DNA of 64,000 bases from a virus (Duplodnaviria; Caudoviricetes). Below, one piece after another: positions 12,604 through 29,929 of this stretch. Each line of letters begins with the position of its first letter. Position 1 is the stretch's first letter. Location: IMG/VR virus record IMGVR_UViG_3300037458_000547, positions 1,474 to 65,473 of that record; one strand, given 5' to 3'. The translations under genes were made by a program, and so were the position numbers. The notes under the pieces were generated by a model. The model saw only the letters and a list, made by a program, of their open reading frames with translations. It did not search any database and was not told the DNA's origin.

Positions 12604-12655
12604 TTGACGGCTACGCGCTGGGCATGTAGACTCCTTTCGTCAATTCAATGGAGGG
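12604..12655 (+). promoter_or_regulatory. Early promoter, operator and CAATGGAGGG leader
   Basis: TTGACG-17-TAGACT; operator TACGCGC-TGG-GCATGTA at 12612-12628. Confidence 0.8.
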
Positions 12656-12659
12656 ACCG

Positions 12660-13577
12660 ATGTCAAATCAACTGGTTCGTTACGAAGAATCCCTGTCGAA
12701 GCAGCTCGCTCGGCAGTGGTCGAAGGCCAAGGAGGGGGACCTGAAATGGTCGGCCGAGAAGCAGTACGCCCTCAACATCCTCCGCAAGAACCCGTACCTG
12801 ATGACCTGCACGCCGGAGAGCTTCGCCATGGCGATGCTCGACGTGGCGTTCACCGGCCTGTCGCTCAGCCCGACCCTGGGCCACGCCTACCTGATCCCCT
12901 ACAAGGGCGAGATCCAGTTCAAGCCCAGCTACAAGGGCCTGGAGCATCTCGTCTACCGCGCCGGGACGGTGGTCAGCGTCCAGGCGGTGCTGGTGCGCGA
13001 CGGGGACTCGTTTCAGGTGCAGACCATCAACAACCGGCGGTCGATCCATCACGTCGAGCATGCCAAGCCGGGCGCCAAGGTGATCGCCGCCTACGCCATC
13101 CTGAAGTACGCCAACGGCGGAGAGTACGTCGAGGTCATGAGCGGCCTCGAGCTGGATGCGGTCGAGCGCCAGGCGAAGTCCGTGCCGAAGGGCGGCGCCG
13201 TGTGGGACGGCCCGTGGAAGGGCGAGATGCAGAAGAAGGCCGTGGTTCGCCGCGCTCTCAAGCACGCCCCGCTGGACAACGGTGGCCGCATGGAGAAAGT
13301 TCTGGCGATCTCCGACAAGTACGACCCGGTCGACTTCGAGCCCACGCCGAAACCCGAGGAGACCGGGCCGACCGTGCTGGTCTCCGATCGGCAGGCGCTC
13401 GAGGTTCACGCCATGCTCACCGAGGGCGGCCTGCCCGCGGATCGAGCGGATGCGTGGATGGTCAAGATGGCCGAGGCGCTGGGGTACACGAAGTTCTCCG
13501 AGATCCCCGCGGACCGCTTCGAGGATGCCGCGAAGCGCCTCAAGGATCGGCTCGACAAATGGGGGGCAGCACAGTGA
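12660..13577 (+). CDS. recT: RecT-family single-strand annealing protein
   Basis: CTPESFAMAMLDVAFTGLSL...GHAYLIPY...PSYKGL; W...KGEMQKKAVVRRALK. Start at 12660 follows the GGAGGG SD. Confidence 0.9.
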   Translation: MSNQLVRYEESLSKQLARQWSKAKEGDLKWSAEKQYALNILRKNPYLMTCTPESFAMAMLDVAFTGLSLSPTLGHAYLIPYKGEIQFKPSYKGLEHLVYRAGTVVSVQAVLVRDGDSFQVQTINNRRSIHHVEHAKPGAKVIAAYAILKYANGGEYVEVMSGLELDAVERQAKSVPKGGAVWDGPWKGEMQKKAVVRRALKHAPLDNGGRMEKVLAISDKYDPVDFEPTPKPEETGPTVLVSDRQALEVHAMLTEGGLPADRADAWMVKMAEALGYTKFSEIPADRFEDAAKRLKDRLDKWGAAQ

Positions 13578-13909
13578 CCGCGTTCACCATCACCTTGCTC
13601 AGGCATGCGCCAACCAAGAGCGATACCCGTACATGGATGGTCGGATCCAGCCCTGACTCCGAGACGTGCCTCGAGGAACTTCGCAAGATGATCGAGGAAG
13701 GACACCCTGGGTTGAATGCCGGCGACATCACCATGCTGACGGTGTTGCTCGGATCCTCCGAATTGGAGAGCTGCGGCTGCCTGGGCTGTCTTGCCGCCGC
13801 AATGGGCGGGCTGATCAGGTACACGCCGAAGGAGACCCTTGAGTCCATGGTCAAGCTGATCGGCCAAGGCTGGATCCTCATGGAGGGAAGCGATGAGCGC
13901 CCAAATTGA
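13574..13909 (+). CDS. Hypothetical protein
   Basis: GTGA overlap with the recT stop. Confidence 0.55.
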   Translation: MTAFTITLLRHAPTKSDTRTWMVGSSPDSETCLEELRKMIEEGHPGLNAGDITMLTVLLGSSELESCGCLGCLAAAMGGLIRYTPKETLESMVKLIGQGWILMEGSDERPN

Positions 13910-14237
13910 CTGGGTGGAGGGCGGCCGCCGCAAGCGGGCCGGGATTCGCCAGGCCGTGGATCACGAGCATGAATCGTGGAAGCTGCTGTACCAGGGGACG
14001 GCCACGGGCTACGTCCGGTCTCTCGACAAGGGCGTGACCTTCACTTCAGAGCAGGTTCGCTCGGTCGTCCACAAGACGGCCGGTGAGCCGCACCACCCGA
14101 ACGTCTGGGGAGCCATGTTCAATGGTTGCCTCAGGCAGTGGATCAAGCTGGGCTGGGTAGAGTTCACCGGCCAGTTTCTGGATGCCACTAACAGCCAGGC
14201 CCATCGTCGGGCCATTCGTCTCTACAGAAGGGTCTGA
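13893..14237 (+). CDS. Hypothetical phage protein (PHHPNVWGA motif)
   Basis: SD GGAGGG; coupled to neighbouring genes. Confidence 0.65.
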   Translation: MSAQIDWVEGGRRKRAGIRQAVDHEHESWKLLYQGTATGYVRSLDKGVTFTSEQVRSVVHKTAGEPHHPNVWGAMFNGCLRQWIKLGWVEFTGQFLDATNSQAHRRAIRLYRRV

Positions 14238-14255
14238 CGACCCAGGAGGGGTTTG

Positions 14256-14669
14256 ATGAGCAGGAACTGTCTGAACATCGAGAAGCGCGACCGGCTGCTG
14301 AACTGGATGCGCCTCAACCATGCCCACCTCGAGACCATCTCGAGGCGGGATGCCGCCAAGAAGGCGACCGAGGAACTCGGGTTTCCGGTCACCGAGACCA
14401 ACTGCACCGGGCTGCAGAGCATTACCGGCGTGAAGTTCGCCCGCCAGGCCCGTGATCCGAACAAGCCCAAGCGCAAGCGCAAGGCGACCGCCGAGCAGAA
14501 GATCGAACTGCTGTTCCTCACCATAAAGTCGATGTCGAACATCCTGCATGCGCTGACGCTGTCGCATGCCAAGCTGAGCAAGGAACTCGGCGTGAAGCTC
14601 GACGTTCAGCTCGACGACCTGGCCGAGAACCTGCGCCTTCAGGCGGAGTCCGATACGAGGGTGCAGTGA
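14256..14669 (+). CDS. Hypothetical protein, possible N-terminal HTH
   Basis: SD AGGAGGGG; RRDAAKKATEELGFPVT segment. Confidence 0.6.
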   Translation: MSRNCLNIEKRDRLLNWMRLNHAHLETISRRDAAKKATEELGFPVTETNCTGLQSITGVKFARQARDPNKPKRKRKATAEQKIELLFLTIKSMSNILHALTLSHAKLSKELGVKLDVQLDDLAENLRLQAESDTRVQ

Positions 14670-15307
14670 CCCCCGGGGAGCATGCCCAGCTTCGGCAGCA
14701 CTGCCTGACCGCGTCCCGGGCGAAGCGGCTGCTCACGGGCAGCTACAAGGTCTGGAACACGCTGGCCAAGGAGATGCGGGCCGAGCAGCGTGTTCTCGGC
14801 CGGGCCCCGAAGTCGATCCCGTCCCTGCACTGGGGCGTGAAGCACGAGCCGTGGCTGCGGGCGGAGGTCTGGGAGCGTTACCCGGCATGGGAGATCGAGC
14901 CGGTCGAGTTCCAGATGTTCCACGGGGAACATCCCTTGCTCTCGAGGCATTGCGGAGCCTCTCCGGACGGAAGGGTCCTGCCGAGGGGCTGGGGCTACGA
15001 AGGCAAATGCCCCTACGATCCGGAGATTCATGCCGGCTACCTGGAGCGCACTACGGTCCCGGAGGAGTACATCCCCCAGGTCCAGTGGTCGCTGTGGGTG
15101 ACGGGCTGGCCCGGCTGGATCTTCGCCTCAGGAGACCCGCGCCGCACCGATGACGGCAGGCTACTGGTCCGCGCTGCCGAGCCCGACCTGGCGATGCACC
15201 AGAAGTTCGAGGAGCTGGCCACCCGGTTCCTCGAGAGCTACCTGGCCGGCGAGTCGTTCCAGCCCGTGTCGGGCTCGGCCGCCAAGCTGGCGGAGATGTT
15301 CAAGTGA
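14666..15307 (+). CDS. YqaJ/lambda-exonuclease-family recombination nuclease
   Basis: WGVKHEP; GASPDG...YEGKCP...YIPQVQWSLWVTG; lies downstream of RecT. Confidence 0.88.
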   Translation: MTPGEHAQLRQHCLTASRAKRLLTGSYKVWNTLAKEMRAEQRVLGRAPKSIPSLHWGVKHEPWLRAEVWERYPAWEIEPVEFQMFHGEHPLLSRHCGASPDGRVLPRGWGYEGKCPYDPEIHAGYLERTTVPEEYIPQVQWSLWVTGWPGWIFASGDPRRTDDGRLLVRAAEPDLAMHQKFEELATRFLESYLAGESFQPVSGSAAKLAEMFK

Positions 15308-15549
15308 GCCGCAGCCGCTGCCTGCTGCATCGCACCCGCCTGAAGGCGTTTCAGGCGTTCTGCGAGGAGCGGGGATGGGTGGCCGAGCCCACGAAAGGGA
15401 TCTATGAGGTCCTGAGGATGCGGCACCCGGAGGAGATCGCTCCGATGATCGTCTATCGTCGGATCGAGATTAAGGAGCATCTCACCGTCTACGGGACGGG
15501 GGTGAAGCTCGCCATTGAGTTCGTACATCAGAAACGGAGGGTGACATGA
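15304..15549 (+). CDS. Hypothetical protein
   Basis: GTGA-coupled ORF with typical codon usage. Confidence 0.6.
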   Translation: MSRSRCLLHRTRLKAFQAFCEERGWVAEPTKGIYEVLRMRHPEEIAPMIVYRRIEIKEHLTVYGTGVKLAIEFVHQKRRVT

Positions 15550-16259
15550 CCGAAGTGACCGTACCCGAGACCCCGCGCTCACAGGAGCTGATCGCGGCGG
15601 CCGAAGTGCTGCTCGACCGAGCGGGCAAGTTCCAGGTGATCCAGACTCCGGCCGAGGCGGAGCTGGCCGCGGAATACCGCGCCCGGGTAAATCAGCAGAT
15701 CAAGGACCTCGACGCCGAACGCCTCGACATGGGCGCCGGGCTGCGCGAGACGCTGCTCAAGATCAATACCCGGTTCAACGCCCCGATCGAGGCCCTCAAG
15801 GCCAAGCTGGGCATCGTCGACCTGGCGCTCAAGGGCTACATGGCTCAGCAGCGGGCGCTCGCCGAGGCCGCCGAGCGAGCCCGCCGCGAGCAGGAGGAGG
15901 CTCGCAAGCGGGAGGAGGCTCGTCGCCTGGCCGAGATCGAGGCCGCCCGCAAGGCAGCCGAGGAGGCCAACCTGCCGCCGCCGGAGCCCGAGCCGCTGCC
16001 GGCGCCCATCCCCGATCCGGTCCCGGAGTTCACGACCACCCGGATCGAGGGCTCCTACGGATCCAAGGTCGGCACCCGAGAGGTGTGGAAGTACCGCATC
16101 GCGGACATCAAGAAGGTCCCCGAGCAGTTCCTGGTGCCGGTGGAAGACCGGGTGAACAAGGGGGCCCTGAACGCGCTGGCCCGGTCCATGAAGGACAAGG
16201 CCAAGGTGAAGGGCATCGAGTTCTACGCGGACGAGACGCTGCAATCGAGGGTGTCCTGA
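15546..16259 (+). CDS. Coiled-coil protein of the recombination module
   Basis: Long E/A/R-rich helix, Pro-rich linker, C-terminal W.Y.I.DIKKVP..FL motif. Confidence 0.7.
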   Translation: MTEVTVPETPRSQELIAAAEVLLDRAGKFQVIQTPAEAELAAEYRARVNQQIKDLDAERLDMGAGLRETLLKINTRFNAPIEALKAKLGIVDLALKGYMAQQRALAEAAERARREQEEARKREEARRLAEIEAARKAAEEANLPPPEPEPLPAPIPDPVPEFTTTRIEGSYGSKVGTREVWKYRIADIKKVPEQFLVPVEDRVNKGALNALARSMKDKAKVKGIEFYADETLQSRVS

Positions 16260-16528
16260 TGTTCAGGCGAGACAAGGGGACGATGTGGCCCCAGCCCGAG
16301 AACGTCATCAGCGGGAAGACGCTGATGGACATCATCAAGAACCGGATCGAGGACCCGTTCGTGGAGATGGACGGGCGGACTTATGTCCGGTTCGATCGAA
16401 TCACGGCCACCGGCCGCTTTGCGGTGGTCGGGCTCCGCGGCATCGACCTGTTCTCTGTCCCGATCGACGGCTCGATGCAGGAGACCCTGGTGCTGGAGAT
16501 TCGCGGGCTGGTCGAGGTGACCCCATGA
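16259..16528 (+). CDS. Hypothetical protein
   Basis: TGATG overlap with the upstream gene. Confidence 0.6.
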   Translation: MFRRDKGTMWPQPENVISGKTLMDIIKNRIEDPFVEMDGRTYVRFDRITATGRFAVVGLRGIDLFSVPIDGSMQETLVLEIRGLVEVTP

Positions 16529-17217
16529 GCGACGGCATCATTGCGTTCCACGAGCTGGTCACCGTCAGGTCCTGGACGGACTCGAGTACCCGCGGGCCCT
16601 CGATCAAGGTCGGGCTGTCCTCCCGGGACTCGCTGGCCGCCTTCGAGAAGATCACCCGGCGGGCCGGGAAGCGGGCCGGGCAGCGATTCGCCTCGGTCTG
16701 GCAGATGGACCCGCCGGACGGCGAGGAGGCCCGCAGCATCGACCTGTGGTTCGCCGGCGCCAACTGGGCCCACCAGGACGGCGCCTCGGTGAAATTCTCG
16801 CTGACCGACGAGGGGCTCGACTGGTTCAGGACCGGGCTCCTGCCGATGGAGGCCGACGACAAGCCGGTCCCTTACTGGCTGACGCTGGTGCAGATCGACG
16901 AGGACGAGAAGCCGATCGACCAGGGGAAGGCCGAGCGCCTCGAGGAGGGGCTCAAGGGCGGCCCCAAGAGCAAGCGCGTGGCCATGCTCTGCCAGCAGAA
17001 GGACTTTCAGGCGTATGTCTCGTACCGCACCAACCTGCGCTGCGAGACCATGGAGGATGCGGACGCCTGGGTGAAGGCGCAGACCGGCGTGGCGTCGAAG
17101 CGCGACTTCGACCACAATCCGGACGCCTGGAGCATGTTCGAGGCTCGCGTGATGAGCCCGTTCATCCGCTGGGGAGAGGGGTCGAAGTGGCGTGACGAAG
17201 ACGATGACGATTCGTGA
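16525..17217 (+). CDS. Hypothetical phage protein
   Basis: ATGA overlap; C-terminal GVASKRDFDHN...PFIRW motif. Confidence 0.7.
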   Translation: MSDGIIAFHELVTVRSWTDSSTRGPSIKVGLSSRDSLAAFEKITRRAGKRAGQRFASVWQMDPPDGEEARSIDLWFAGANWAHQDGASVKFSLTDEGLDWFRTGLLPMEADDKPVPYWLTLVQIDEDEKPIDQGKAERLEEGLKGGPKSKRVAMLCQQKDFQAYVSYRTNLRCETMEDADAWVKAQTGVASKRDFDHNPDAWSMFEARVMSPFIRWGEGSKWRDEDDDDS

Positions 17218-17530
17218 ACACTGGGACCGGGTGGCCGACCTGGGTTGCATCCTGTCGGGCGCACAGTCGCCGACGCTGCACCACTGTCACGGCGGGAGCC
17301 TGCGAGAGATCGGTATTCACAAGGGCCTGGGGCAGAAGACCTCGGACTTCCTGGTGATTCCCCTGGCGCCCCGGTTCCATACCGGGGAATATGGGATCGA
17401 CGTGATCCCGGTCTGGGAGTGGGAACACCGCTTCGGCCGGCAGGTCGATCATTTGGACGAGCTGTGTCAGTCGCTGGGCTACAACGTCTGGGAGCTGGCC
17501 GGAGTGAAAAGGAGGGTCGAAGGATGCTGA
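17192..17530 (+). CDS. Ref/DUF968-like HNH-type nuclease
   Basis: VADLGCI...LHH...GLGQKTSDFLVIPLAPRFH. Start could be ATG 17204. Confidence 0.75.
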   Translation: MTKTMTIREHWDRVADLGCILSGAQSPTLHHCHGGSLREIGIHKGLGQKTSDFLVIPLAPRFHTGEYGIDVIPVWEWEHRFGRQVDHLDELCQSLGYNVWELAGVKRRVEGC

Positions 17531-17712
17531 TGCTAGCGCGAAAGGAAGGCGAGGCGATCATGGTCGGGGACGAGATCCGTATCGTGATCGTCAGCGTGGA
17601 GGGCCGGAACATCAAGGTGGGCGTCGAGGCCCCCAGGGACATTCCGGTCCATCGTGAGGAGGTCTACCGGCGGATTCGCAGCAATGGAAGTGGGACTCGA
17701 GCAGCTGATTGA
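17524..17712 (+). CDS. csrA: Carbon storage regulator CsrA/RsmA-family RNA-binding protein
   Basis: MLMLARKEGEAIMVGDEIRIVIVSVEGRNIKVGVEAPRDIPVHREEVYRRI follows the CsrA pattern throughout. Confidence 0.95.
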   Translation: MLMLARKEGEAIMVGDEIRIVIVSVEGRNIKVGVEAPRDIPVHREEVYRRIRSNGSGTRAAD

Positions 17713-18481
17713 CGCGGCCGCGACCCACGAGGACACGGGGCGCGTCGCGGGGCAGCCGAGGGTGGACAATCCCGCGCTGAGGCGCAAGTCGGTGCCTCCG
17801 GAGCCCGGCGAGCCGGAACTGCTGGGAGAGTCAGCGCCGGTCATGGCCGGCGGGCTGCGCCGTCGCCTCCTACAGCGGGAGAATGCCAGGCAGAGGCGCC
17901 TGCACTTCGCTCGCGTGCTGGTTGCAACCGGCTGGGACGCTGAGAAGGCGCTGCTGGATTCCGGCTATTCGGGTCGGGCAGGCAGCAGGAACATCAGCGA
18001 AGCATGCAGCGTCATGCTGAAGCACCCGGACGTGATCTCCGAGGTCGAGCGTCTGCGCCTGGTCCTCGAGCAGCAGGCGGACGTGGCCACGATCGACCTG
18101 GCCAAGGAGTGGGTCTCGATCGCCTCCTCGGACATCTTCGACTACTTCGACGAGGTCGATGACGGAGATGGCGTCAGGCTGGCCCTGAAGCCCAAGGCCG
18201 AGATCAGCAAGGCGGCCCGCCGCTCGGTGAAGGCCGTCAAGATCCGGCGCAACAAGCGCACCACCAAGGACGGCGATCAGATCGAGACCGAGGACATCGA
18301 GGTGCAGCTCTGGGACAAGCATTCGGCCCTCGACTCCCTGGCGAAGATCCAGGGGCTGTACCAGGACAAGAAGGCGGACGCCATCAATAACCTGGCCTCG
18401 AAGATCGCCGAGCGGACCGAGAAGGCTCGCCGGCGCATGGGGCGGACGTTCGACGCCGGGGCCCTCGAGGGGCCGGGTTGA
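17684..18481 (+). CDS. terS: Terminase small subunit
   Basis: AEKALLDSGYS HTH; ASSDIFDYF; EVQLWDKHSALDSLAKIQGLY; lies upstream of TerL. Confidence 0.8.
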   Translation: MEVGLEQLIDAAATHEDTGRVAGQPRVDNPALRRKSVPPEPGEPELLGESAPVMAGGLRRRLLQRENARQRRLHFARVLVATGWDAEKALLDSGYSGRAGSRNISEACSVMLKHPDVISEVERLRLVLEQQADVATIDLAKEWVSIASSDIFDYFDEVDDGDGVRLALKPKAEISKAARRSVKAVKIRRNKRTTKDGDQIETEDIEVQLWDKHSALDSLAKIQGLYQDKKADAINNLASKIAERTEKARRRMGRTFDAGALEGPG

Positions 18482-18495
18482 CCGCTGTGCGGGTA
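18479..18495. promoter_or_regulatory. Operator-like site before the TerL unit
   Basis: TGACCGC-TGT-GCGGGTA; 15 bp (CCGCTGTGCGGGTAG) identical to the 31144-31158 site; overlaps TTGACC. Confidence 0.5.
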
Positions 18496-18535
18496 GCAGA
18501 CAGAATATGACCGGCACAGCAGGTAGGGTTCAGTC

Positions 18536-18742
18536 ATGCACCGGCCGATCGTCATCGCTGGTAGCCTGGCTCAGTTCGCAGACTGGTGCCGGGTCCACCA
18601 GACCAACCCCATCGCCGCGATCTACGTTCGCAGCGAGGCTGAGCTGCGTTCGGCCCTCTGCAAGACCCGGGACGTGTTCCTGTGGGGCGACTACGACCAG
18701 ACCCCGGCGTACCGTGCGTGGCGGCTGAAGCAGGCCGCCTGA
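18536..18742 (+). CDS. Hypothetical protein
   Basis: 68-aa ORF between terS and terL. Confidence 0.55.
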   Translation: MHRPIVIAGSLAQFADWCRVHQTNPIAAIYVRSEAELRSALCKTRDVFLWGDYDQTPAYRAWRLKQAA

Positions 18743-20199
18743 AGGACGACGAGGACCTGCTAGGGGAACTGGTGGCCCGCTGCTATGCGGACCCCGAGCT
18801 GTTCGTCCACACGATGTACCCCTGGGGCGAGCCCGGGACCTTCCTGGCCAACGAAACGGGCCCGGACGAGTGGCAGACCGCCGCTCTCCGGGCCCTGGGC
18901 GAGGAGGTCCGCGAGCAGGAGAACCTCGAGGAGTTGATGAGGCGGGCGATCCGCTTCGCGGTCGCCTCCGGCCACGGTGTCGGCAAGACGGCGTTCGTGG
19001 CGTGGATCATCCAGTGGTTCATCTCCACCCGGCCGTTCCCACAGATCGTGGTGACGGCGAACACCCGCACCCAGCTCACCACCAAGACCTGGCGCGAGCT
19101 GGCCAAGTGGCACTCGGTCTCCCTGAACAGCCACTGGTTCGAGTGGAGCGCGACCCAGTTCAAGCTGGTCGCCCGGCCGGACCTGTGGTTTGCCACGGCT
19201 GTCCCCTGGTCGGTCTCCAATGCCCAGGCATTCGCCGGCACGCACGAGGCCCACGTCCTGATGGTGTTCGACGAGGCGTCGAACATCGAGGACATCATCT
19301 GGGAGACGGCCGAGGGCGCCATGACCACCCCGGGGTCGATGTGGCTGTGCCTCGGCAACCCGGTGAAGAACACGGGCCGCTTCCGGGAGTGCTGGACCCG
19401 GTTCCGGGATCGCTGGACCACCTTCCAGGTGGACGCCCGCAAGGCCAAGAAGGCCAACCAGATCGAGATCCGGCAGTGGATCGAGGACTACGGCCTCGAG
19501 TCGGACTTCGTGAAGACCCGCATCCTGGGCGAGTTCCCGTCCTCCTCGCCCCTGCAGATGATCCCGGTGGACCTGGTGGACGAGGCAGTGGCTCGCGAGG
19601 TGAAGTGGGAGAACATCCCGGTCACCACCCCGAAGCTGATGGGAGTCGACGTGGCCCGCTCGGGCTCGGCCCAGTCGGTCATCCTGTTCCGCCAGGGCCC
19701 GAAGCTGCTGAAGGACATCTACGCCTATCGCATCCCGGACCTGATGCTGCTGGCGGCCCAGGTGGCGAAGAAGATCAACGACTACAAGCCCGACGTGGTG
19801 TTCATCGACGCGACCGGCATGGGCGTCGGGGTCTACGATCGCCTGGTTCAGCTCGGCTTCGATAACGTGGTGGCCATCTACACCGGCGACCGCAAGGAAG
19901 TGCTGGAGAAGCGGGTGTACTACAACCCCCGCATCGAGAGCTGGGCGCGGCTCAAGACGTGGCTGCGCACAGCCGACATCCCCGACCACCGTCCACTGCG
20001 CGAGGACCTCATCGGGCCCGAGTATTTCTTCGATCAGGCACAGCTCATGCGGCTCGAGTCGAAGGAGGACATGGCGGCCCGCGGCATCCCCTCGCCGGAC
20101 TTCGCGGATGCCCTGGCGCTCACCTTCTCGCAGGCCGTTCCCGTGAAGCGCGTTTACGGGCATGATGATGAATACTCGAACGAGCCCGAGGTCGTGTGA
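18682..20199 (+). CDS. terL: Terminase large subunit
   Basis: ASGHGVGKT Walker A; VFDEAS Walker B; GVDVAR, IDATGMG and SPDFADALALTF nuclease motifs. Exact start uncertain. Confidence 0.95.
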   Translation: MGRLRPDPGVPCVAAEAGRLKDDEDLLGELVARCYADPELFVHTMYPWGEPGTFLANETGPDEWQTAALRALGEEVREQENLEELMRRAIRFAVASGHGVGKTAFVAWIIQWFISTRPFPQIVVTANTRTQLTTKTWRELAKWHSVSLNSHWFEWSATQFKLVARPDLWFATAVPWSVSNAQAFAGTHEAHVLMVFDEASNIEDIIWETAEGAMTTPGSMWLCLGNPVKNTGRFRECWTRFRDRWTTFQVDARKAKKANQIEIRQWIEDYGLESDFVKTRILGEFPSSSPLQMIPVDLVDEAVAREVKWENIPVTTPKLMGVDVARSGSAQSVILFRQGPKLLKDIYAYRIPDLMLLAAQVAKKINDYKPDVVFIDATGMGVGVYDRLVQLGFDNVVAIYTGDRKEVLEKRVYYNPRIESWARLKTWLRTADIPDHRPLREDLIGPEYFFDQAQLMRLESKEDMAARGIPSPDFADALALTFSQAVPVKRVYGHDDEYSNEPEVV

Positions 20200-20525
20200 T
20201 GGATCGGTACGGTGTCCTGGCGCAGGCCGCCCCAGTCGCCACGGTGACGGTCAACCTGTACTGGGTTCCGCGAGGCCAGAAGGTCGAGAACGCCCGCATC
20301 ATCTCCTGCAACCGCAGTGCCGTGCCGGCCGCGGTCCGGATCGCCGTCGCACCGGAGGGCGCCGCCGACTCGCTCGAGCAGTTCATTGCCTATGACAAGG
20401 AGGTCCCATCGTTGGATACTGTGGCCTCCGTTGAGATGGTCCTGGGGGAGCGGAGTGTCGTGAGGGTGACATCGGACACGGGTGACGTTTCGTTCACGCT
20501 TTTCGGGAAAGAACAGACCCTGTGA
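20196..20525 (+). CDS. Small beta-rich putative virion protein
   Basis: Coupled to terL; alternating hydrophobic strands. Confidence 0.6.
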   Translation: MMDRYGVLAQAAPVATVTVNLYWVPRGQKVENARIISCNRSAVPAAVRIAVAPEGAADSLEQFIAYDKEVPSLDTVASVEMVLGERSVVRVTSDTGDVSFTLFGKEQTL

Positions 20526-20536
20526 GGAGTTAAGCA

Positions 20537-20947
20537 ATGGCGATCAAGATGTCATCGACGGTGCGTGATGCCCGCCTGGACGCGATCGAGACGGCGATCG
20601 GCGCGACCGCAGTTCTCAAGATCCGCACGGGCGCCCCGCCCACCAACATCTCGGATGCGGACTCGGGCACGGTGCTGGCCACGCTGACGCTGCCCTCAGA
20701 CTGGATGGCGGCGGCCTCCGGCGGCTCGAAGGCCAAGGCCGGGACCTGGGAAGATGCCTCAGCGGATGCCGCGGGGACCGCGGGCCACTTCCGCATCTAC
20801 GCCTCCAACGGCACCACCCAGCACATGCAGGGCACCATCACCAGTGTCGCCGTCGGCACGGGCGACATGCTGCTCGACAACGACGTGCTGGCCTCCGGGC
20901 AGACCGTGACGGTCACGAGCTTCACGCTCACGGACGGCAATGCATAA
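20537..20947 (+). CDS. Putative virion structural protein, paralog A
   Basis: RDARLDAI...FRIY.S.GTT...VGTGD...TDGNA; paralog of 35832-36236. Confidence 0.75.
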   Translation: MAIKMSSTVRDARLDAIETAIGATAVLKIRTGAPPTNISDADSGTVLATLTLPSDWMAAASGGSKAKAGTWEDASADAAGTAGHFRIYASNGTTQHMQGTITSVAVGTGDMLLDNDVLASGQTVTVTSFTLTDGNA

Positions 20948-20973: not shown

Positions 20974-23076
20974 GTGGCCATCAACATCCGCGAGGGTCGC
21001 TGGGGCGTCAGCCGCATCGTGCAGGAGGCGGATGGCGGCTACGCCGTCGCCGCGATGCTGCAGACCCCGCGGCTCGCGGATCAGGTCAGCGCCTACTACC
21101 CGCCCCTACAGGACGGCGTCTACCCAGTCGGGTGGGCGCTGGTTCACCTCGTCGGCAACATCGGCACGCCCGACGCAGACACGCGGCTGCTGCCTGATCG
21201 TCTGACGACGGCGACGGTCGGGGACCTCACGCAGCAGCAGCGGAACACGCTGCGCAACGTCCTCGAGCAAGCCCTCTCCGCCTACAGCTACGTTGACCGC
21301 TACGGCGCCACGATCAACAAGGCGGCGTTTCAGGCGGCGGGCTACTCGCTCTCGACGCCGATCTTCCGGATTCTCCGCGACGTGTACGAGTACCTCGGAC
21401 ACAGCGAGACGCGGCCCGTGCAGGCGGTGCCAGAGTCGCACAACACCGAGTACCTCGACAACTTCTCGACGGACCCGTCGAGCCGGTGGACGGCGGACAG
21501 CGCAACGCTGACGTGGGACAGCGGAAATAGCGAACTCGACAGCTTCCTCACCAGCAACACGCTCTGGCGCTACACCGCAAACGACCCGGGCTCCATCGAG
21601 CATGAGGCGCAGGTTACGCTGCAAAGCCAAGGCACCGCGGGATCTTCAAATCGCACGCCCGGCCCGCTGGTGCGTGGCTCCGCGACGAGCAACGGCTACC
21701 AGATCCACGATAACGGCGACGACGTAATCCCGCTCGCCCGCTGGAATAGCGGGACGCGCACCGCGCTCGCCGCCATCACGGGAAACACCGCCCGTAACCC
21801 CGGAGATTTCCAGACGTTGCGCCTCGCCGCTTCCGGCGCGGCCGGCTCCGCGGTCGTTCTGTCCTATTGGCAGACAGTTCACGGTGCGACCAAGCCGAGC
21901 GATCCAGGGTGGATTGGAGTCGATGAGACACCGGGGTTTACGACGTACTCCGACACCGACGCAACTAACCGGCACGACGATTCTGACGATATTTACTGCG
22001 GAATCGGAGGTAGGTCTGCCGCCTCTGATTCCGACCCGCGCCTGAGCTTCTGGAAGTCGCGGGCGATCAGTGACCGAGGCGGCGGCTCGATCTCGGCCTC
22101 GCTCAGCAAGACGCTGGACACGATCGGGCTCAGCACCTCGATCGAGACGCCGGCCCAGGCCAGCCTGGCGCGGACCCTGGACGGGATCGGGCTCAGCACC
22201 TCGATCGAGACGCCGGCCGTCGCCTCGCTCAGCCGGACCCTGGACGGGATCGGGCTCAGCGCCCAGGGCTCGGTGGGCACGGTCATCAGCGAGGCCACGC
22301 TCAGCCGCACGCTGGACTCCGTCTCGCTCACCACCTCAGTCGAGACACCCGCCAGGGCGACGCTCGCCGGGACGCTGGGCAGCGTTGGACTCACCACCTC
22401 AGTCGAGACCCCGGCTCGAGCCGCCCTGGGCGCCACCCTGGGCGGAGTCACCCTCTCAGCCACGGGCTCCATCGGTCAGCTCGTCAGCGAAGCCTCGCTC
22501 AGTCAGACGCTGGCCTCGATCTCGCTGACGGCGGCCGCGGACACGCCGGCAAAGGGGTCGCTCACCTCCTCGCTGTCGAGCGTCAGTCTGGCGGCCGCGG
22601 TCGACACGCCCGCGAAGGCGACGCTCGCCAGGACGCTCGATGGGGTTGGGCTTGCCGCCACGGGCGTTGTCGGTGGGGTCTCGGAGGCCACGCTCGCCGC
22701 CACGCTGGCCGGCTTGACCCTGGCGGCCGCCGTCGATACGCCCGCTCGGGCATCACTGGCGAGAACACTCGACGGCATCGGGCTGAGCGCGGCCGGAGAG
22801 GTCACCGGTCTGGCGGACATTCAGGCGTCGCTGGCGAAGACGCTGGATGCCGCGACACTGGTCTCTGCCGGCACGATCCGGGTCGCGGCGACGCTGGCCC
22901 GCAGCCTGGACTCCATCGGGCTCAGCGCGACGGCGACGCTCGGAGGGGCAATCGCCAGCGCCGCGATCACGCTGGAGGACGCGAGCCTGTTCGGCCGCGG
23001 CAAGGTCTATGCGGCCGGGACGCCCGGGGTTTCCGGGACGGTCGGCCGCATCCACATGACCGCCTTCATGAGTTGA
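20974..23076 (+). CDS. Fibre/adhesin-like protein: lectin-like beta domain plus Ala/Ser/Thr tandem repeats
   Basis: N-terminal W/G/S/T-rich beta domain; C-terminal repeats of about 20 aa (ASL.RTLDGIGLS..ETP). Confidence 0.65.
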   Translation: MAINIREGRWGVSRIVQEADGGYAVAAMLQTPRLADQVSAYYPPLQDGVYPVGWALVHLVGNIGTPDADTRLLPDRLTTATVGDLTQQQRNTLRNVLEQALSAYSYVDRYGATINKAAFQAAGYSLSTPIFRILRDVYEYLGHSETRPVQAVPESHNTEYLDNFSTDPSSRWTADSATLTWDSGNSELDSFLTSNTLWRYTANDPGSIEHEAQVTLQSQGTAGSSNRTPGPLVRGSATSNGYQIHDNGDDVIPLARWNSGTRTALAAITGNTARNPGDFQTLRLAASGAAGSAVVLSYWQTVHGATKPSDPGWIGVDETPGFTTYSDTDATNRHDDSDDIYCGIGGRSAASDSDPRLSFWKSRAISDRGGGSISASLSKTLDTIGLSTSIETPAQASLARTLDGIGLSTSIETPAVASLSRTLDGIGLSAQGSVGTVISEATLSRTLDSVSLTTSVETPARATLAGTLGSVGLTTSVETPARAALGATLGGVTLSATGSIGQLVSEASLSQTLASISLTAAADTPAKGSLTSSLSSVSLAAAVDTPAKATLARTLDGVGLAATGVVGGVSEATLAATLAGLTLAAAVDTPARASLARTLDGIGLSAAGEVTGLADIQASLAKTLDAATLVSAGTIRVAATLARSLDSIGLSATATLGGAIASAAITLEDASLFGRGKVYAAGTPGVSGTVGRIHMTAFMS
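22080..22960 (+). repeat. Coding tandem repeats (ASLSRTLDGIGLS/TSIETPA units)
   Basis: Recurrent GACGGGATCGGGCTCAGC and ACCTCGATCGAGACGCCGGC strings, in frame. Confidence 0.85.
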
Positions 23077-23130
23077 CCGGTACGCGCAGGGCGCGTAGAC
23101 TGTAACCGTCACCAGCTCATCAACGGAGGG
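23073..23130 (+). promoter_or_regulatory. Early promoter, perfect operator palindrome and leader
   Basis: TTGACC-17-TAGACT; TACGCGC-AGG-GCGCGTA at 23081-23097; CAACGGAGGG at 23121. Confidence 0.85.
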
Positions 23131-23136
23131 ACCATC

Positions 23137-23872: not shown

Positions 23873-23877
23873 TGGTC

Positions 23878-24063
23878 ATGCGGGTCTTTGTGACGCGCCT
23901 GTTCCACTGCCCGGAGTGCGACTCAATCTACGATCTCCCGGTGCCAGAGGGCGACCAGCAGGACGTACACCGGATTTGCAGTCGCTGCTGGCGCCGGTTC
24001 TACGCTGAGTCGGATCGCGACAGCCCCTCTGGGCCTGTTGACGAGTACCCGCTCAGCGAGTAG
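23878..24063 (+). CDS. Small Zn-ribbon protein
   Basis: CPEC...CSRC. Confidence 0.55.
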   Translation: MRVFVTRLFHCPECDSIYDLPVPEGDQQDVHRICSRCWRRFYAESDRDSPSGPVDEYPLSE

Positions 24064-24091
24064 ACTGTAACCGTCACCAAACAATGGAGGG
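24038..24091 (+). promoter_or_regulatory. Early promoter, operator and leader
   Basis: TTGACG-17-TAGACT; TACCCGC-TCA-GCGAGTA at 24046-24062; TAGACTGTAACCGTCACCA identical to the 23096 cassette. Confidence 0.85.
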
Positions 24092-24099
24092 AATGCAAG

Positions 24100-25231: not shown

Positions 25232-25240
25232 GGAGGGGTC

Positions 25241-25984
25241 ATGAAAGAGCAATGGACGGTCGAGTATCGAGATTGGATCGGGCGGAGCAAGCAGGGCTAC
25301 ATGGTGCGCCGCCTGAGGAAGGGCCGCGGCAAGTGGCGCTACCGGTTCGACAAGGTGCCGGAACACGTCAAGACCTTCCTGCACCTCAAGCCCGTCCCGG
25401 TGCGAGGCACCTCGAACATGGTGCTGTCCAGCATCCGCTCGGAGGCCAAACTGCACGAGTGCCGGGTCACCTTCCCGGCGCGGGCCCGGGATCGGTTCCT
25501 GTGCGAGATCGAGTCGCCTCCTCACGAGAGGGGTTACCGGGCCTTCTCGCCGCGCACCCTTGCTCACCTGTTCCACTGGGCGGACAGCCCGGCCGAACTC
25601 TACCGGCTCGCCTACAAGTACACCGATTGCGGCCCGGCCATCGGGTTCAAGCTGGAGGGCAAGGCGCCCATCTACTGCGACTCGCTGCGTGAGCTGGGGA
25701 CGTGGGCGGAGATGACCGGCCGCGGCGAGCGGGTCGAGTACCTGACCGTGAGCAGCATCGTCGAGGGCGTGGACACCGAGACCGAAACCGTCGAGGTCCC
25801 GTGTGAGCCGCTCGACACCCTCGTTTCCCGATGGGGGGAGGCTATCGAGGAAGTGAACCGGCAGGCCAAAGACATCTGGAACGAGACTCACGGCTGCGAG
25901 AAGTGCGGGCCCGAGAGTGAGTGTGGCTATCGCGTCATCAATCCCAAGTGCCGCGCCTGCAAGGGGCGTGGAGTCATCCTGTGA
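25241..25984 (+). CDS. Hypothetical protein with a C-terminal Zn finger
   Basis: SD GAGGAGG; CEKC...CRACKG. Confidence 0.7.
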   Translation: MKEQWTVEYRDWIGRSKQGYMVRRLRKGRGKWRYRFDKVPEHVKTFLHLKPVPVRGTSNMVLSSIRSEAKLHECRVTFPARARDRFLCEIESPPHERGYRAFSPRTLAHLFHWADSPAELYRLAYKYTDCGPAIGFKLEGKAPIYCDSLRELGTWAEMTGRGERVEYLTVSSIVEGVDTETETVEVPCEPLDTLVSRWGEAIEEVNRQAKDIWNETHGCEKCGPESECGYRVINPKCRACKGRGVIL

Positions 25985-26001
25985 TCCCCGATAGGCGGGT
26001 A
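25985..26001. promoter_or_regulatory. Operator-like palindrome
   Basis: TCCCCGA-TAG-GCGGGTA, intergenic. Confidence 0.55.
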
Positions 26002-26104
26002 TCCCCTCAGCGGGTGCGGCGGGATGAGGCGGGCGCCTCGCCGCTGCTGATTTATGCGGTGATTCTGCTGGTAATCGCATTGCTCGGCCTCGCGTTGTGA
26101 GGGC

Positions 26105-26155
26105 TTGCATTCTCACGCGCCGCGAGTAGACTGGAGGCGTGGCAACAACGGAGGG
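26105..26155 (+). promoter_or_regulatory. Early promoter, degenerate operator and leader
   Basis: TTGCAT-16-TAGACT; right half-site GCGAGTA; CAACGGAGGG at 26146. Confidence 0.7.
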
Positions 26156-26158
26156 ACC

Positions 26159-26443
26159 ATGACCAAGAAACCGCCGACAGTGACACTCTGGTATTTCGAG
26201 TTCTGCACGAATGGACTCGGCGTGTGGGACCGAATGTGGGCCGCCTCACGCTCGGAGCTGGCCAAAGAGCGCCAGTGGCTGAAAGACATCAACAGCAAGC
26301 TGGACGACAAGATGACTCCAGGCGACGAGCTGGACGGATCACAGGGGCAGCACGGCCCGGCGCGGTCGGTCAAGGTGGAGCTGACTGCCGAGGGCGTCCT
26401 CCACTTCGCCCAGAACTTCGCGGTTGATCAGGGGAGCTGCTGA
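26159..26443 (+). CDS. Hypothetical protein
   Basis: ATG after CAACGGAGGGACC. Confidence 0.7.
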   Translation: MTKKPPTVTLWYFEFCTNGLGVWDRMWAASRSELAKERQWLKDINSKLDDKMTPGDELDGSQGQHGPARSVKVELTAEGVLHFAQNFAVDQGSC

Positions 26444-26754
26444 TGCCATTCCCCACTGGAGACCTGAGGGGCCGGGTGGAAAAGCTGGAATCCCGGAATG
26501 AAGAATTGGCCCGCGTCCTGCGCGAGGTGTCCGCCGTCATCGACGCAATGCAGGCGCCCGCGGAGATCGACGAGGCATTCCCCGAGGACCCCGACGAGGA
26601 TCGCGCCAGCATCAACGACCAGCATTGCTTCGGCACGTTCAGGAGCTGGGGGCTCACCAACATCGACGGCGCCGACAACGCCCGCCCGGTGGTGATCGAG
26701 TGGCCGGACCTGAGCTGGGCCCGCGACCAGATTACGAAGGTGCTGGCGTCATGA
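26443..26754 (+). CDS. Hypothetical protein
   Basis: TGATG coupling. Confidence 0.6.
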   Translation: MPFPTGDLRGRVEKLESRNEELARVLREVSAVIDAMQAPAEIDEAFPEDPDEDRASINDQHCFGTFRSWGLTNIDGADNARPVVIEWPDLSWARDQITKVLAS

Positions 26755-26933
26755 GCCGCAGGCCCGACATCATGCTGACCCTGCCCGCCCTGCTCGGGCA
26801 TGCCGACCAGCAGGCCGAGGACCGGCTCACCTCTAAGCGTGAGGACGCCTGCCAGTGGATGCGCGAGCGGGGAATCGAGGTCCTCAGCGACCCGCTGCCG
26901 CCGGAGCGGTTCGGGCGGGAGGCGCGGCCATGA
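26751..26933 (+). CDS. Hypothetical protein
   Basis: ATGA coupling. Confidence 0.55.
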   Translation: MSRRPDIMLTLPALLGHADQQAEDRLTSKREDACQWMRERGIEVLSDPLPPERFGREARP

Positions 26934-27211
26934 TCGAGCTGACGTGGCACGCCATCGACGCCGAGGGGGAGGAGGAGTGCGGGGCTTTCGAGGTCCCGGA
27001 GTCCTGCACGCTCGCTGAGCTGGTCGAGGCGGCGCTAGCTGACCTTGAGGAACGCTCCGGGTCCTTCAATGACTACATGGGCGAGCCGGTCGGGTTGCGG
27101 ATTGAGTTCCCGTGCGCCGCTCGCGGCCTGTGGCTGGATGTTTCCGCGCACTTGACATCCCCGCAGGGCGGGGAGCAAGCTAACACCGTCCCAACTCAGA
27201 ACGGAGGTTGA
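26930..27211 (+). CDS. Hypothetical acidic protein
   Basis: SD GGGAGG; ATGA coupling. Confidence 0.55.
   Translation: MIELTWHAIDAEGEEECGAFEVPESCTLAELVEAALADLEERSGSFNDYMGEPVGLRIEFPCAARGLWLDVSAHLTSPQGGEQANTVPTQNGG
27152..27207 (+). promoter_or_regulatory. Promoter, perfect operator palindrome and variant leader
   Basis: TTGACA at 27152; TCCCCGC-AGG-GCGGGGA at 27158-27174; AACGGAGG leader. The -10 is weak. Confidence 0.65.
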
Positions 27212-27213
27212 AA

Positions 27214-27567
27214 ATGGGTGACAGAGTGTTGTTCCAAGTGATCAAGGCGGCAGAGGATTCGGTCGAGTTCTCCCCCGTCATCTACGGCCACAACGCGGGT
27301 GACGCGGCGCCGACCATCGTGGCCCAGCTCGCCATTCAGATGCGCGACCGCATGGGGGATGTGAGCTACTGGGCGGCGCGGCTGGTCGAGGTCCTGTGCC
27401 AGACTGACCCGGGCGGATGCCTCAGCATCGGCATCTGGAACGCAGATGCAATCCTGACCGCGAAGGACTCGCACGGGGACGCCGGGGTGGTCCTCATCAA
27501 CGCCGACAACGGCGCCGCGATGTACCTCGGCGGTTACTACAATGCCGATGGCCGGGAGGTCGAATGA
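27214..27567 (+). CDS. Hypothetical protein
   Basis: SD GGAGG before ATG. Confidence 0.7.
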   Translation: MGDRVLFQVIKAAEDSVEFSPVIYGHNAGDAAPTIVAQLAIQMRDRMGDVSYWAARLVEVLCQTDPGGCLSIGIWNADAILTAKDSHGDAGVVLINADNGAAMYLGGYYNADGREVE

Positions 27568-28019
27568 CCCTCACCATCCGCAACGTGTCCGAGTCCGAGC
27601 GGCTGGAGTTCTTCCCGCGTCACTTTGGCCCGATGGCGATGATGACCGTCGAGGCCCGCGTCTTTCACTACGCGAGGCAGTCCCTGCGCGATGAGCGCAC
27701 CGGTGAGCCGGCCTACGCCGGGGGCGTGTGGGAGTTCTCCGAAGCCAGCAACGGCGCCGGTTGGATGTGGCCCCGATCGGTCCCGGAGCGGGTGGACCTC
27801 GGGCCGGTCGGGGAGCTGGGCGGGGATGTCCGGGGACTCTCCCGGGTGGCCGCCGGCCTCGCGCTGACGTGCATCGCGGTGAACCATGAGCTGTGGCGCC
27901 TGCACGAGGAGCAAGGCGACTGCGCCGCCACGCGCAAGCTGGACGAGCAGTGGCGGCTGTTGATGGAGGCCGCGAGCGAGTGCGATGAGGCAGGGAAGAT
28001 ACTGGAATGGCTCGATTGA
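27564..28019 (+). CDS. KlcA/ArdB-family antirestriction protein
   Basis: [11 protein letters not shown]; Y.GG.WEF...NGAGWMWP; LS..AAGL; terminal A..I..WLD. Confidence 0.8.
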
Positions 28020-28040
28020 GCCTCAGCACAAGCCGCAACG

Positions 28041-28070
28041 GAGGGCGCCCATTCGGGCGCCCTCTTGCTA
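28041..28070 (+). terminator. Perfect 10-bp hairpin, probable intrinsic terminator
   Basis: GAGGGCGCCC-ATTC-GGGCGCCCTC followed by TTGCTATT. Confidence 0.65.
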
Positions 28071-28128
28071 TTGCGCCCCTACCCGCGGGGCGCGTAGCAT
28101 ACAAGCGTGGATGGTCCACAATGGAGGG
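28071..28128 (+). promoter_or_regulatory. Promoter, operator and leader
   Basis: TTGCGC-18-TAGCAT; TACCCGC-GGG-GCGCGTA at 28080-28096; CAATGGAGGG at 28119. Confidence 0.7.
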
Positions 28129-28135
28129 TAGATCA

Positions 28136-28621
28136 ATGCAGCGACAGTTATTCACAAAGGTCGGGCGCCGCTACAAGCCGGCCCCGGCGGAAACCGTGTG
28201 CGAAGCGGCGGCGGCGTATCTGGCCGCGCCCCTGATGCGCGGGCCCGCAATCGTCAACCCCCGGGTTACCCGGGAATATCTGCGCACCCTGCTGGGGATG
28301 CGCGAGCGGGAAGGCTTCGCGGTGGTGTTCCTCGACAACCGGCACCGGGTCATTGCGACTGAGGTGATGTTCGAGGGGACCATTGACGGCGCCAGCGTTC
28401 ACCCGCGGGAAGTGGTCAAAGCGGCTCTCAGGCAAAACGCCGCGGCGATCATCCTCGCCCACAATCACCCGAGCGGGAATCCCGAGCCCAGTGCGGCCGA
28501 CGAGCTGATTACCCAGCGGCTCCGGGATGCGCTGGCACTGGTGGACATCCGGGTACTGGATCATCTGATTGTGGCCCCGGGCGGCTTTGCCGTGTCCTTT
28601 GCCGAGCGGGGGCTGATATGA
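28136..28621 (+). CDS. radC: RadC-like JAB/MPN domain protein
   Basis: [11 protein letters not shown]...[15 protein letters not shown]...[15 protein letters not shown]...LDHLIV. Confidence 0.95.
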
Positions 28622-28851
28622 GCCACTATGACCCCCTGTATGAGGCAATCGAGCGGGGCGATGAGGACTGCTCTCACGCCTTCGCGCACCCGGGCGGGAA
28701 CTCGGCGCTCCGGGCCGCCAGTCGCCGCAATCCCCGCAACCTGCCCTGTCCGACGTGCGGCGAGCCCAATCGCCTGACACCGGCGGACCGCGCCCGCGGG
28801 TATCAGTGCGATGCGTGCGCGGACCGGGCCGAACGTGGATGGGACTACTGA
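28618..28851 (+). CDS. Small Zn-finger protein
   Basis: CPTC...YQCDAC. Confidence 0.7.
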
Positions 28852-29279
28852 TGCTGCGCACCCGGGAACTGGCGGACCTGCTGCGCAGGAACTGGGGACG
28901 GCACCGCCCCTACACCCGGAAGCAACTGATCGAGGTGCTGACCGAGGATGCCCGCCGGCGGCTGCCGCGGATTGATCGGCTGATCAATGAGCGGGCCCAG
29001 TGGCGGGCGCACATTGACGCCAACACCGAGGGCGGGCGCGTGGCTCTCTGCCGCTCCGGGATGGATTGCGACTGCGTGACGTACACCGACGCCCGGGTGA
29101 TCCCGGCGCCGGTGTCGGTCGTGGCGTGGCTCCGGGAGTTCGACCAGCACTGCGAGTGGCTGGACGGCCCGGAATCGACATGGTTCGACAAGCCGAGCCG
29201 GGTCACCGAGGGCCACGAGTCGCGGGATTTAGTCCTGGAGGCGTATGAGGACGGGCATCCGCACGTCATTCACCTGTAA
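28851..29279 (+). CDS. Hypothetical protein
   Basis: TGATG coupling; GMDCDC motif. Confidence 0.65.
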   Translation: MLRTRELADLLRRNWGRHRPYTRKQLIEVLTEDARRRLPRIDRLINERAQWRAHIDANTEGGRVALCRSGMDCDCVTYTDARVIPAPVSVVAWLREFDQHCEWLDGPESTWFDKPSRVTEGHESRDLVLEAYEDGHPHVIHL

Positions 29280-29297
29280 CAACGGAGGGACCAACAG

Positions 29298-29543
29298 ATG
29301 ACACTCATGAAAGCCCTCGACCTGTGCAGGGCGCTCCGCGCTCAGGGACTCCGCCCCCGCAGCTACTCAGGGCGCGGGATGTACGGGAAGGAGTGTGTCG
29401 GGGCCAGCCTCGACAGCGACAGCGACCTCGATACCGAGGGCCTACCTCGGGCAACGTGGGACAGCTTGGGGAAAGGGGTGATCGCCTATTGGCCTGCCGT
29501 GAAGTGGACCCGCGAGTGCGAGCGGATCTACCCGGAGGAATGA
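29298..29543 (+). CDS. Hypothetical protein
   Basis: CAACGGAGGG leader; RSYSGRGMYGKECVG...WDSLGKGVIAYWP. Confidence 0.75.
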   Translation: MTLMKALDLCRALRAQGLRPRSYSGRGMYGKECVGASLDSDSDLDTEGLPRATWDSLGKGVIAYWPAVKWTRECERIYPEE

Positions 29544-29668
29544 TGGAAGCCTTCGCATGGCTGGTCATCCTGACCGTATGGGTCTCCCTGCTCTGGATAG
29601 GCGGAGTGATCGGGGAGTGGATGCTGCACCGCAACAAGAAAGATCCGGGAGGAAATCCGGAGGGGTGA
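29543..29668 (+). CDS. 41-aa single-TM peptide
   Basis: TGATG coupling; MEAFAWLVILTVWVSLLWIGGVIG. Confidence 0.55.
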   Translation: MEAFAWLVILTVWVSLLWIGGVIGEWMLHRNKKDPGGNPEG

Positions 29669-29675
29669 GGTAAGG

Positions 29676-29835
29676 GGAGGTTAAGGACGGTAGGGCCAGC
29701 ATTAAGCTGGTCTTATCGTTTGGGGAGGAGGGACAAGGGATAGGACAGGGACAGCGAGGGACGCGGGGGATGCGGGATGCGTGCAGGACGTAGGGTCTGC
29801 CCGGATGGATTCCCGGGAGCCGGGGGAACTGCGGA
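29676..29835 (+). ncRNA. GGA-dense, G-rich non-coding segment (Csr/Rsm sponge or G-quadruplex candidate)
   Basis: 17 GGA in 160 nt by hand count, six as ANGGA; seven GGG tracts in 29722-29776. Confidence 0.35.
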
Positions 29836-29929
29836 CTATGCTTAGCCGACTGGTATTGACAACTGCCTAATAGTGGAGGACGCTACAGGTGAGGGCCAAT
29901 CCCGGCTCTCACAACGGAGGGTGAGAAGC

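Follow-up and report, generated by a model that had tools for sequence, protein, structure and literature searches.

A conserved ten-base tag at early-gene starts of a csrA-bearing wetland phage and the promoter-like cassettes that carry it

Short repeats located close to translation starts were described in the Cluster K mycobacteriophages as start-associated sequences (SAS; GGGATAGGAGCCC); their function is unknown, and about half of them are linked with an inverted repeat on their upstream side, the presumed target of a DNA-binding protein (PMC3203893). The T4-type phages carry promoter-early stem-loop (PeSL) cassettes (PMC2839356, PMC4122927). Phage-borne csrA genes, also of unknown function, have been catalogued in ∼1% of phages, including F116 and DC1/Bcep22 (PMC7366521). 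We analyzed a ten-base sequence, CAA-N-GGAGGG (hereafter the tag), that precedes early genes in a window of 64,000 nucleotides, bases 1474-65473 of the 65,473-bp IMG/VR virus record IMGVR_UViG_3300037458_000547; the phage is referred to as W. We propose, with a probability of about one half, that the tag is a clade-specific start-associated sequence similar to those of Cluster K, which works without dedicated CsrA control and is carried on PeSL-like cassettes marking gene-exchange junctions.

The pattern CAAYGGAGGG has eight exact matches in the window, all on the + strand, as compared with 0.29 on average and at most 2 in dinucleotide shuffles. These are the eight copies that were listed in an initial annotation of this DNA, and its statement that seven of them serve as the Shine-Dalgarno site of the next gene also stands: seven sit 3-9 nt 5' of a start codon, and the copy at 28036 is the exception. 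The tags precede the genes for RecT (12646-12655, CAATGGAGGG; ATG 12660), a 134-aa protein (23121-23130; ATG 23137), a 126-aa protein (24082-24091; GTG 24100), a 94-aa protein (26146-26155; ATG 26159) and RadC (28119-28128; ATG 28136). The tag at 29280-29289 comes right after the TAA with which the upstream gene ends; it lacks a promoter ahead of it and belongs to an 81-aa gene (ATG 29298), while the last exact copy (29912-29921) stands behind a hairpin and before the gene for a 60-aa CxxC protein (ATG 29930). A variant on the same strand, GAACGGAGGT at 27199-27213 (ACGGAGGT at 27201), precedes ATG 27214 and is located behind a different promoter-like module, with TTGACA and a long spacer containing CCCCGC..GCGGGG. 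A ninth copy, CAAGGGAGGG at 31640 (+ strand), has G at position 4 and forms the ribosome site before ATG 31655. The W copies are confined to 12.6-31.7 kb, none occurs among the structural genes, and early-type functions (RecT, ArdA, RadC, SSB) are found among the tagged or neighbouring genes. None of the genes from 36 kb onward uses the tag, their ribosome sites being mostly (T)GAGGAG or AGGAG.

Related phage contigs were reached via TerL homologues in a large protein collection, and two more via CsrA homologues. Start-placed tags were found in three phages, 28 in total: eight in W, 11 in REL (a 65,030-bp contig present in dozens of runs, TerL 87% identical to W, with one further terminator copy) and nine in L032 (CsrA 74%); the fragment L034 (CsrA 81%) has one. 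There are no start tags in L007 (TerL 68%), L008 (TerL 69%) and L010-L012 (TerL ∼58%), and the recurrent ribosome sites are TAGGAG in L007 and GTGGAGG in L008. The csrA gene overlaps terS in all of these phages except L010-L012, which have no csrA beside terS. Only four of the W tag genes have a tag-bearing orthologue in REL and the other tagged genes have no tag-bearing counterpart; therefore, the same tag precedes unrelated genes. The REL orthologue of the 81-aa gene has CAAAGGAGGG at the tag position.

Seven sets of orthologous leaders were compared (recT, the 134-aa gene, the post-ardA cassette, the CxxC gene plus three further sets). At the nine fixed positions of the tag, all pairwise comparisons agree (135/135), whereas the flanks (12 nt upstream and 4 nt downstream) are just 41-42% identical, suggesting that the tag has been selected beyond a plain Shine-Dalgarno site. 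Position 4 differs even among orthologues, being T, C and A in the recT leaders, and G also occurs, as at 31640. Bases C1, A2 and G10 are invariant in 29 copies; position 10 is G in 20 of 20 sites, even though it lay outside the search pattern. Between the -10 element and the tag the spacing is variable (12-19 nt), while the tag remains 3-9 nt from the start codon, thus the constraint acts on translation initiation, beyond GGAGG. The tag repeat is real, selected and clade-specific. No further clade members were found by scanning IMG/VR for GTAGACT-N10-22-tag (17 single, unrelated chance matches) or the JGI metagenome contigs for GCGCGTAGACT-N10-22-tag (two unrelated matches).

Alignment of the upstream regions revealed that five tag copies form the 3' end of a repeated module, in the order TTGACN, a 17-nt spacer with a palindrome, TAGACT, a 12-19 nt leader, the tag, 3-9 nt and the start codon. 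The recT cassette (12604-12659) has its -35 element TTGACG at 12604, a near-palindrome in the 17-nt spacer and its -10 element TAGACT at 12627-12632, and an orthologous copy is kept in REL and L032. The cassette of the 134-aa gene (23073-23136; TTGACC, TAGACT at 23096-23101) has the perfect palindrome TACGCGC-AGG-GCGCGTA at 23079-23097 in its spacer. The same arrangement is found before the 126-aa gene (24038-24099; TTGACG, 17 nt, TAGACT at 24061-24066), the 94-aa gene (26103-26158; CTTGCA, spacer, TAGACT at 26127-26132) and radC (28066-28135; -35-like TTGCGC, palindrome TACCCGC-GGG-GCGCGTA, -10 element TAGCAT at 28095-28100); all five cassettes are on the + strand. Promoter activity is predicted for these modules by consensus match only: a promoter-consensus scan of 11.5-31.4 kb found eight sites, including those at 12604, 23073 and 24038, as compared with 1.9 expected, and the matches near 26103 and 28066 are weaker. 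A terminator scan showed no enrichment (7 found, 8.0 expected).

A conserved CGT(C/G) begins 5 nt after the -10 element, and its G lies 7 nt after this element. Transcription may start at this G, in which case the 5' untranslated regions would comprise just 20-29 nt, and the CC of the CCGT words that had been proposed to pair with the A(C/T)GG of the tag would not be transcribed from the cassette promoters. The words themselves are present at 23106, 24071 and 27186, but the CCGU:A(C/U)GG stem is absent from the minimum-energy folds, and the predicted folding of these leaders is no stronger than that of shuffles (z 0.12, 0.48 and -0.85, respectively). The phage was found at 100% identity in four wetland metatranscriptome runs, only as scattered, shallow contigs with a depth of 2-5. 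Some of the RNA-library contigs begin near tags (12657, 24089/24090 and 27202) and one spans a promoter; the starts at 24089 and 24090, which come from two studies, give a weak hint only.

A second promoter-like class consists of TTGACA or TTGACT, 22-23 nt with a CCCCGC..GCGGGG-type palindrome and a TA-rich hexamer. Such sites were observed at ∼27153-27214 and 29856-29929 in W, in the REL leader of 20902 and in the L032 leaders of 17249 and 20169. The spacer appears too long for a standard sigma-70 promoter, and the module may need an activator or carry a different operator. Another promoter-like site, TTGACC-17 nt-CAGAAT without a palindrome, is located at 18478-18535, between terS and the 68-aa gene that precedes terL; at the matching position, REL has TTGACC, 18 nt and CATAAT.

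The cassettes coincide with borders of homology between related phages. Homology blocks of W with REL/L032 begin at the -35 elements of the recT cassette (12603) and, for REL, of the 23.1-kb cassette (23067). The 61-bp cassette at 24038-24098 alone matches L032 13697-13756 (82%), between unrelated genes. Furthermore, radC (W 28145-28624) is inserted exactly between the cassette start codon and the 77-aa gene that is driven by the same cassette in REL and L032; the counterpart sites are REL 21910-21920 and L032 18210, and in L008 radC sits after terL. Because the cassette is repeated, it would mark junctions at which cargo is gained, lost and exchanged between related phages. Two side remarks of the initial annotation, that the motif resembles start-associated sequences and that it could act as a recombination handle, are the ones best supported by the evidence.

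The copy at 28036-28045 (+ strand) is not a ribosome site and forms instead the 5' arm of a terminator-like hairpin directly after ardA, in which 28040-28050 pairs with 28055-28065 (11 bp; -29 kcal/mol, z -4.4). A terminator hairpin at this position is kept in three phages (W 28040-28065; L014 10741-10766; L032 18114-18146). The post-ardA hairpins of W, REL and L032 differ in their stem sequences, and only L032 has a clear U-run.

The csrA gene of W (62 aa; 17524-17712, + strand; ribosome site AAAAGGAGGG) is not the gene after the tag at 29912, which encodes the CxxC protein. Its identity was confirmed: the product matches PF02599 with 77 bits (cut-off 27) over model positions 1-52 of 53, and can be aligned over its full length with E. 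coli CsrA (1Y00) and RsmE (2JPP) (E-value 8e-16). Residues L2, L4, R6 and R44 are invariant across four phage CsrA copies and the VHREE motif is found among the family residues, thus the product is a true CsrA that has kept its RNA-binding residues. As had been noted, csrA is placed directly before terS, a Terminase_2 gene (17684-18481, + strand) that it overlaps by 29 nt (17684-17712), and this arrangement recurs among six phages. The W terS lacks a Shine-Dalgarno site at any usable distance from its start, which is therefore probably coupled to csrA translation. The overlap is 29 nt in four phages (W; L004 8984-9012; L032 10158-10186; L034 4903-4931) and 4-8 nt in two (L007 8940-8943; L008 9003-9010). 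The first gene of the csrA operon in W is a tagged one, and the csrA gene of REL has the tag itself. A csrA homologue is present in 88 phage records.

According to the start-signal interpretation that we prefer, the tag would combine a strong Shine-Dalgarno core (GGAGG) with the invariant flanks C1, A2, A3 and G10 and would give a defined set of early, non-structural genes a common translation start signal. Most tags would end a ∼60-75 bp cassette made of a sigma-70-type promoter, an operator palindrome in the spacer and an unstructured leader of 20-29 nt, and other copies would work alone inside operons. The cassette would drive high and co-ordinated early expression, with the operator, rather than the tag, as the obvious switch. 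Strong translation is predicted from pairing with the 16S rRNA tail, the energy of which has a mean of -10.6 kcal/mol for the tag genes as compared with medians of -8.7 for the other early-region genes and -8.1 for the late genes; in the duplex model, pairing is limited to A3, GGAGG and, via a bulged A, G10. The following points weigh against the interpretation, in which the ribosome would be the sole reader of the flanks. The 16S 3' end offers no pairing partner for the invariant C1 and A2, and for the invariant G10 only through the bulged A, so a purely ribosomal explanation does not account for them and makes room for a trans-acting reader. In addition, the orthologous leader sets were picked among leaders that have the tag, one REL orthologue (before a 92-aa gene) has the looser CAAATGGAGGT, and the shallow RNA-library contigs may derive from DNA, so that no transcript starts or ends can be claimed from them. 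In T4, RegA is a translational repressor of early mRNAs and RegB is an endonuclease that cuts GGAG in early ribosome sites. An unrecognised phage or host factor, either a small protein or an RNA, might likewise read all ten bases of the tag as an activator, repressor or endonuclease of early mRNAs, which we regard as quite unlikely. It would account for flanks that are explained neither by 16S pairing nor by the CsrA consensus, as the authors of the Cluster K study argued for SAS (PMC3203893), and many small genes of unknown function, such as that of the 60-aa CxxC protein, are common to the three tag-bearing phages. No candidate was identified, however: the complete record gave no match at E ≤ 1 to the RegA (PF01818) and RegB (PF10715) profiles, and the + strand shows the complement of the tag at chance level only (a single 9-mer, located within a gene at 20425), which argues against an antisense RNA reader. 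A DNA-level role seems highly improbable. By this account, the cassettes would provide the RecT/YqaJ system, both parts of which are encoded by W, with short homologies for cargo shuffling, and the tag would be kept only as part of the handle; the cassette-only homology between unrelated genes, the precise radC insertion, the blocks starting at 12603 and 23067 and the precedent of the T4-type PeSL cassettes (PMC2839356) are all in line with it. However, 10 bp is short for annealing, and a handle should conserve length and not one 10-mer in a leader that has otherwise diverged (41% identity). Tags without a cassette are still exactly at ribosome-site distance from starts, and homology blocks end at gene borders anyway.

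The initial annotation had favoured a different reader, namely phage CsrA. In this model, phage or host CsrA would bind the A(C/T)GGA of the tag, occlude the ribosome site and end early translation; shut-off would follow as CsrA accumulates, so that a captured CsrA would act as a RegA-like temporal switch. The genuine and clade-conserved csrA with its RNA-binding residues, its place in an operon with a tagged first gene and the tag of the REL csrA are consistent with this proposal, as is the absence of RegA/RegB homologues, which makes CsrA the only visible candidate reader in the genome. The A(C/T)GGA pentamer is indeed present within the motif: each tag holds a primary CsrA site (ACGGA, ATGGA or AAGGA) over the Shine-Dalgarno sequence, as in known targets (PMC4066749), and tag position 4 is free, like the N of A(N)GGA. 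Hairpin-loop presentation is possible in a few leaders (REL 17393, REL 20886 and W 29912), and a GGA-rich non-coding stretch is located at 29650-29835. All tag-bearing phages found (W, REL, L032 and L034) have csrA. The tag in relatives lacking csrA was to count against CsrA control, and no such phage was obtained from the IMG/VR and JGI cassette scans or among the relatives; L007 and L008 have csrA without the tag, and L010-L012, which have no csrA beside terS, lack the tag too. On balance, CsrA control of the tag is unlikely, and none of the computed tests linked CsrA to it. The csrA/terS overlap is older than the tag, being kept in L007 and L008, and the GTGGAGG of L008 does not fit A(N)GGA. 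Bases C1, A2 and G8-G10 are invariant and yet are not CsrA determinants, with C1, A2 and G10 outside the CsrA/RsmE consensus. The claim that late genes use ordinary Shine-Dalgarno sites is correct as regards the tag, but an A(N)GGA or AGGA overlapping or near this site is found in 15 of 31 late genes as well as in 8 of 8 tag genes, therefore early and late genes cannot be told apart by the minimal site. The CSRA_TARGET criteria comprise A(N)GGA at or near the Shine-Dalgarno sequence and at least three sites per transcript, with pairs <60 nt apart, and a lone site that covers the Shine-Dalgarno sequence is in most cases a false positive (PMC4066749). Between the predicted start and +30, the cassette leaders have one or two sites, the second being the overlapping GGAGGGA; with one independent GGA per leader, none of the five reaches three sites. 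In a blind -200 to +30 window the rule was passed by 6 of 8 tag genes versus 19 of 65 controls, which is not independent evidence because the tag itself supplies up to two sites. Presentation in a loop is not consistently predicted either, being seen in the folds of only ∼4 of 20 leaders, with a probability of unpaired GGA from 0.05 to 0.98. It can be speculated further that the captured CsrA is the early-to-late translational switch of a lytic clade, made from an early operon, coupled to terS and binding the tag on about ten early mRNAs, as a layer on top of the operator promoters and with the GGA-rich RNA of 29650-29835 as a possible buffer; we find this extended scheme rather improbable.

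The G-rich stretch at 29650-29835, which separates the 81-aa gene block from the CxxC gene, is packed with GGA (28 in 395 nt). In REL, the orthologous spacer is likewise rich in GGA (18 in 520 nt) but cannot be aligned with that of W, and an RNA-library contig covers 29722-29919. An Rfam scan of the window found no family at gathering scores, CsrB/RsmZ types included. The neighbouring CxxC..CxxC protein (29930-30112) is encoded behind a tag in W, REL and L032, and weakly resembles, with all matches below the Pfam cut-offs, the zinc-finger domain of DnaJ as well as Anti-TRAP, which inhibits an RNA-binding protein. The hairpin directly 5' of its tag is kept with a different stem sequence (W 29889-29938; REL ∼23975-24020). 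The 3' arm (UCUCA/CCUCA) could instead pair with the UGAGA after the tag, looping the tag, and such alternative structures are a possible switch for the CxxC gene.

The W record originates from wetland metagenomes and is rated complete by CheckV, with 65% GC and genes essentially all on the + strand. In addition to the genes discussed above, it contains genes for a giant polyvalent protein (2-11131), the YqaJ exonuclease (14666-15307), TerL (18682-20199), the portal (44329-46611) and the major head protein (48134-49129); recT occupies 12660-13577, and ardA (27417-28019), radC (28136-28621) and ssb (34766-35185) lie within a block of small genes. In W, terL and the portal gene are ∼24 kb apart, with fibre-like and early genes in between, and in the more distant relatives L010-L012 early genes separate terS from terL instead, with terL adjoining the portal module. 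An arrangement in which the upstream TGA stop is part of the ribosome site, c(c)TGAGGAG, is found at 20537, 25241, 36252, 57169 and 61561, at genes outside the tag set. No integrase or resolvase was found in the W record, and a search for close cultured relatives, run by megablast with 24 kb on 50,697 phage records, gave no match. The W TerL is at most 51% identical to that of any deposited phage, and IMG/VR contains just two relatives of it, both distant. The nearest cellular CsrA homologues (52-59%) belong to gammaproteobacterial metagenome-assembled genomes (Congregibacter, Lysobacterales), which gives a hint only at the host. W belongs to a lineage of high-GC podophages, which probably infects a Gram-negative host.

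The tag presents a clean footprint, nine invariant bases in leaders that have otherwise diverged almost to randomness, together with a defined promoter/operator context and one candidate reader, CsrA, in the same genome. The system makes it testable what start tags do and what phage-borne csrA genes do, and its cassettes are a concrete example of early and anti-defence cargo (ArdA, RadC and others) swapping between related phages. Should the tag be no more than a strong ribosome site, it would be a useful annotation rule for the clade and little more.

Among the described systems, T4 RegA/RegB would be matched by W in the sense that, with CsrA or another factor as the reader, a phage factor acting on a shared early ribosome-site sequence would end early expression; unlike T4, W encodes neither homologue. 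CsrA/RsmA control (PMC4066749, PMC7366521, PMC9928087) shares with W a true CsrA and A(N)GGA over the ribosome site. However, the known targets are multi-site and often presented in hairpin loops, whereas the W leaders have one independent site and are predicted to be mostly single-stranded; csrA also occurs in relatives without the tag, and binding of the W CsrA to the tag is putative. The PeSL cassettes resemble those of W as small repeated cassettes with a sigma-70-like early promoter, recognized in W by consensus match only, that are concentrated among non-essential early genes and at indel or replacement borders between close relatives; W has two clear border cases (the radC insertion and the cassette-only match of 24038-24098), plus the two blocks that begin at -35 elements. 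They differ in the stem-loop, which is found in only one of the five W cassettes (28036-28135, with the terminator hairpin directly before the promoter), and the operator palindrome and ribosome-site tag of W are not defining parts of PeSL. SAS share most with the tag. Both consist of short, asymmetric repeats that share a single orientation and stand a few bases 5' of start codons (in W on the + strand, at 3-9 nt), both are limited to non-structural genes and precede different gene families across related phages, and both join a Shine-Dalgarno core to conserved flanks that are unable to pair with 16S rRNA. The SAS inverted repeat is paralleled by the spacer palindrome of W, which lies inside a recognisable promoter. 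The sequences and lineages differ, with 10 bases in the W tag as compared with 13, as does the setting, which in W is a 65% GC genome with sigma-70-type TTGACN/TAGACT promoters and probably a Gram-negative host. W has no integrase, while a temperate lifestyle is described for Cluster K phages such as Adephagia. The tag is thus analogous to SAS and not a member of that family, an SAS-like element in an unrelated lineage of high-GC podophages.

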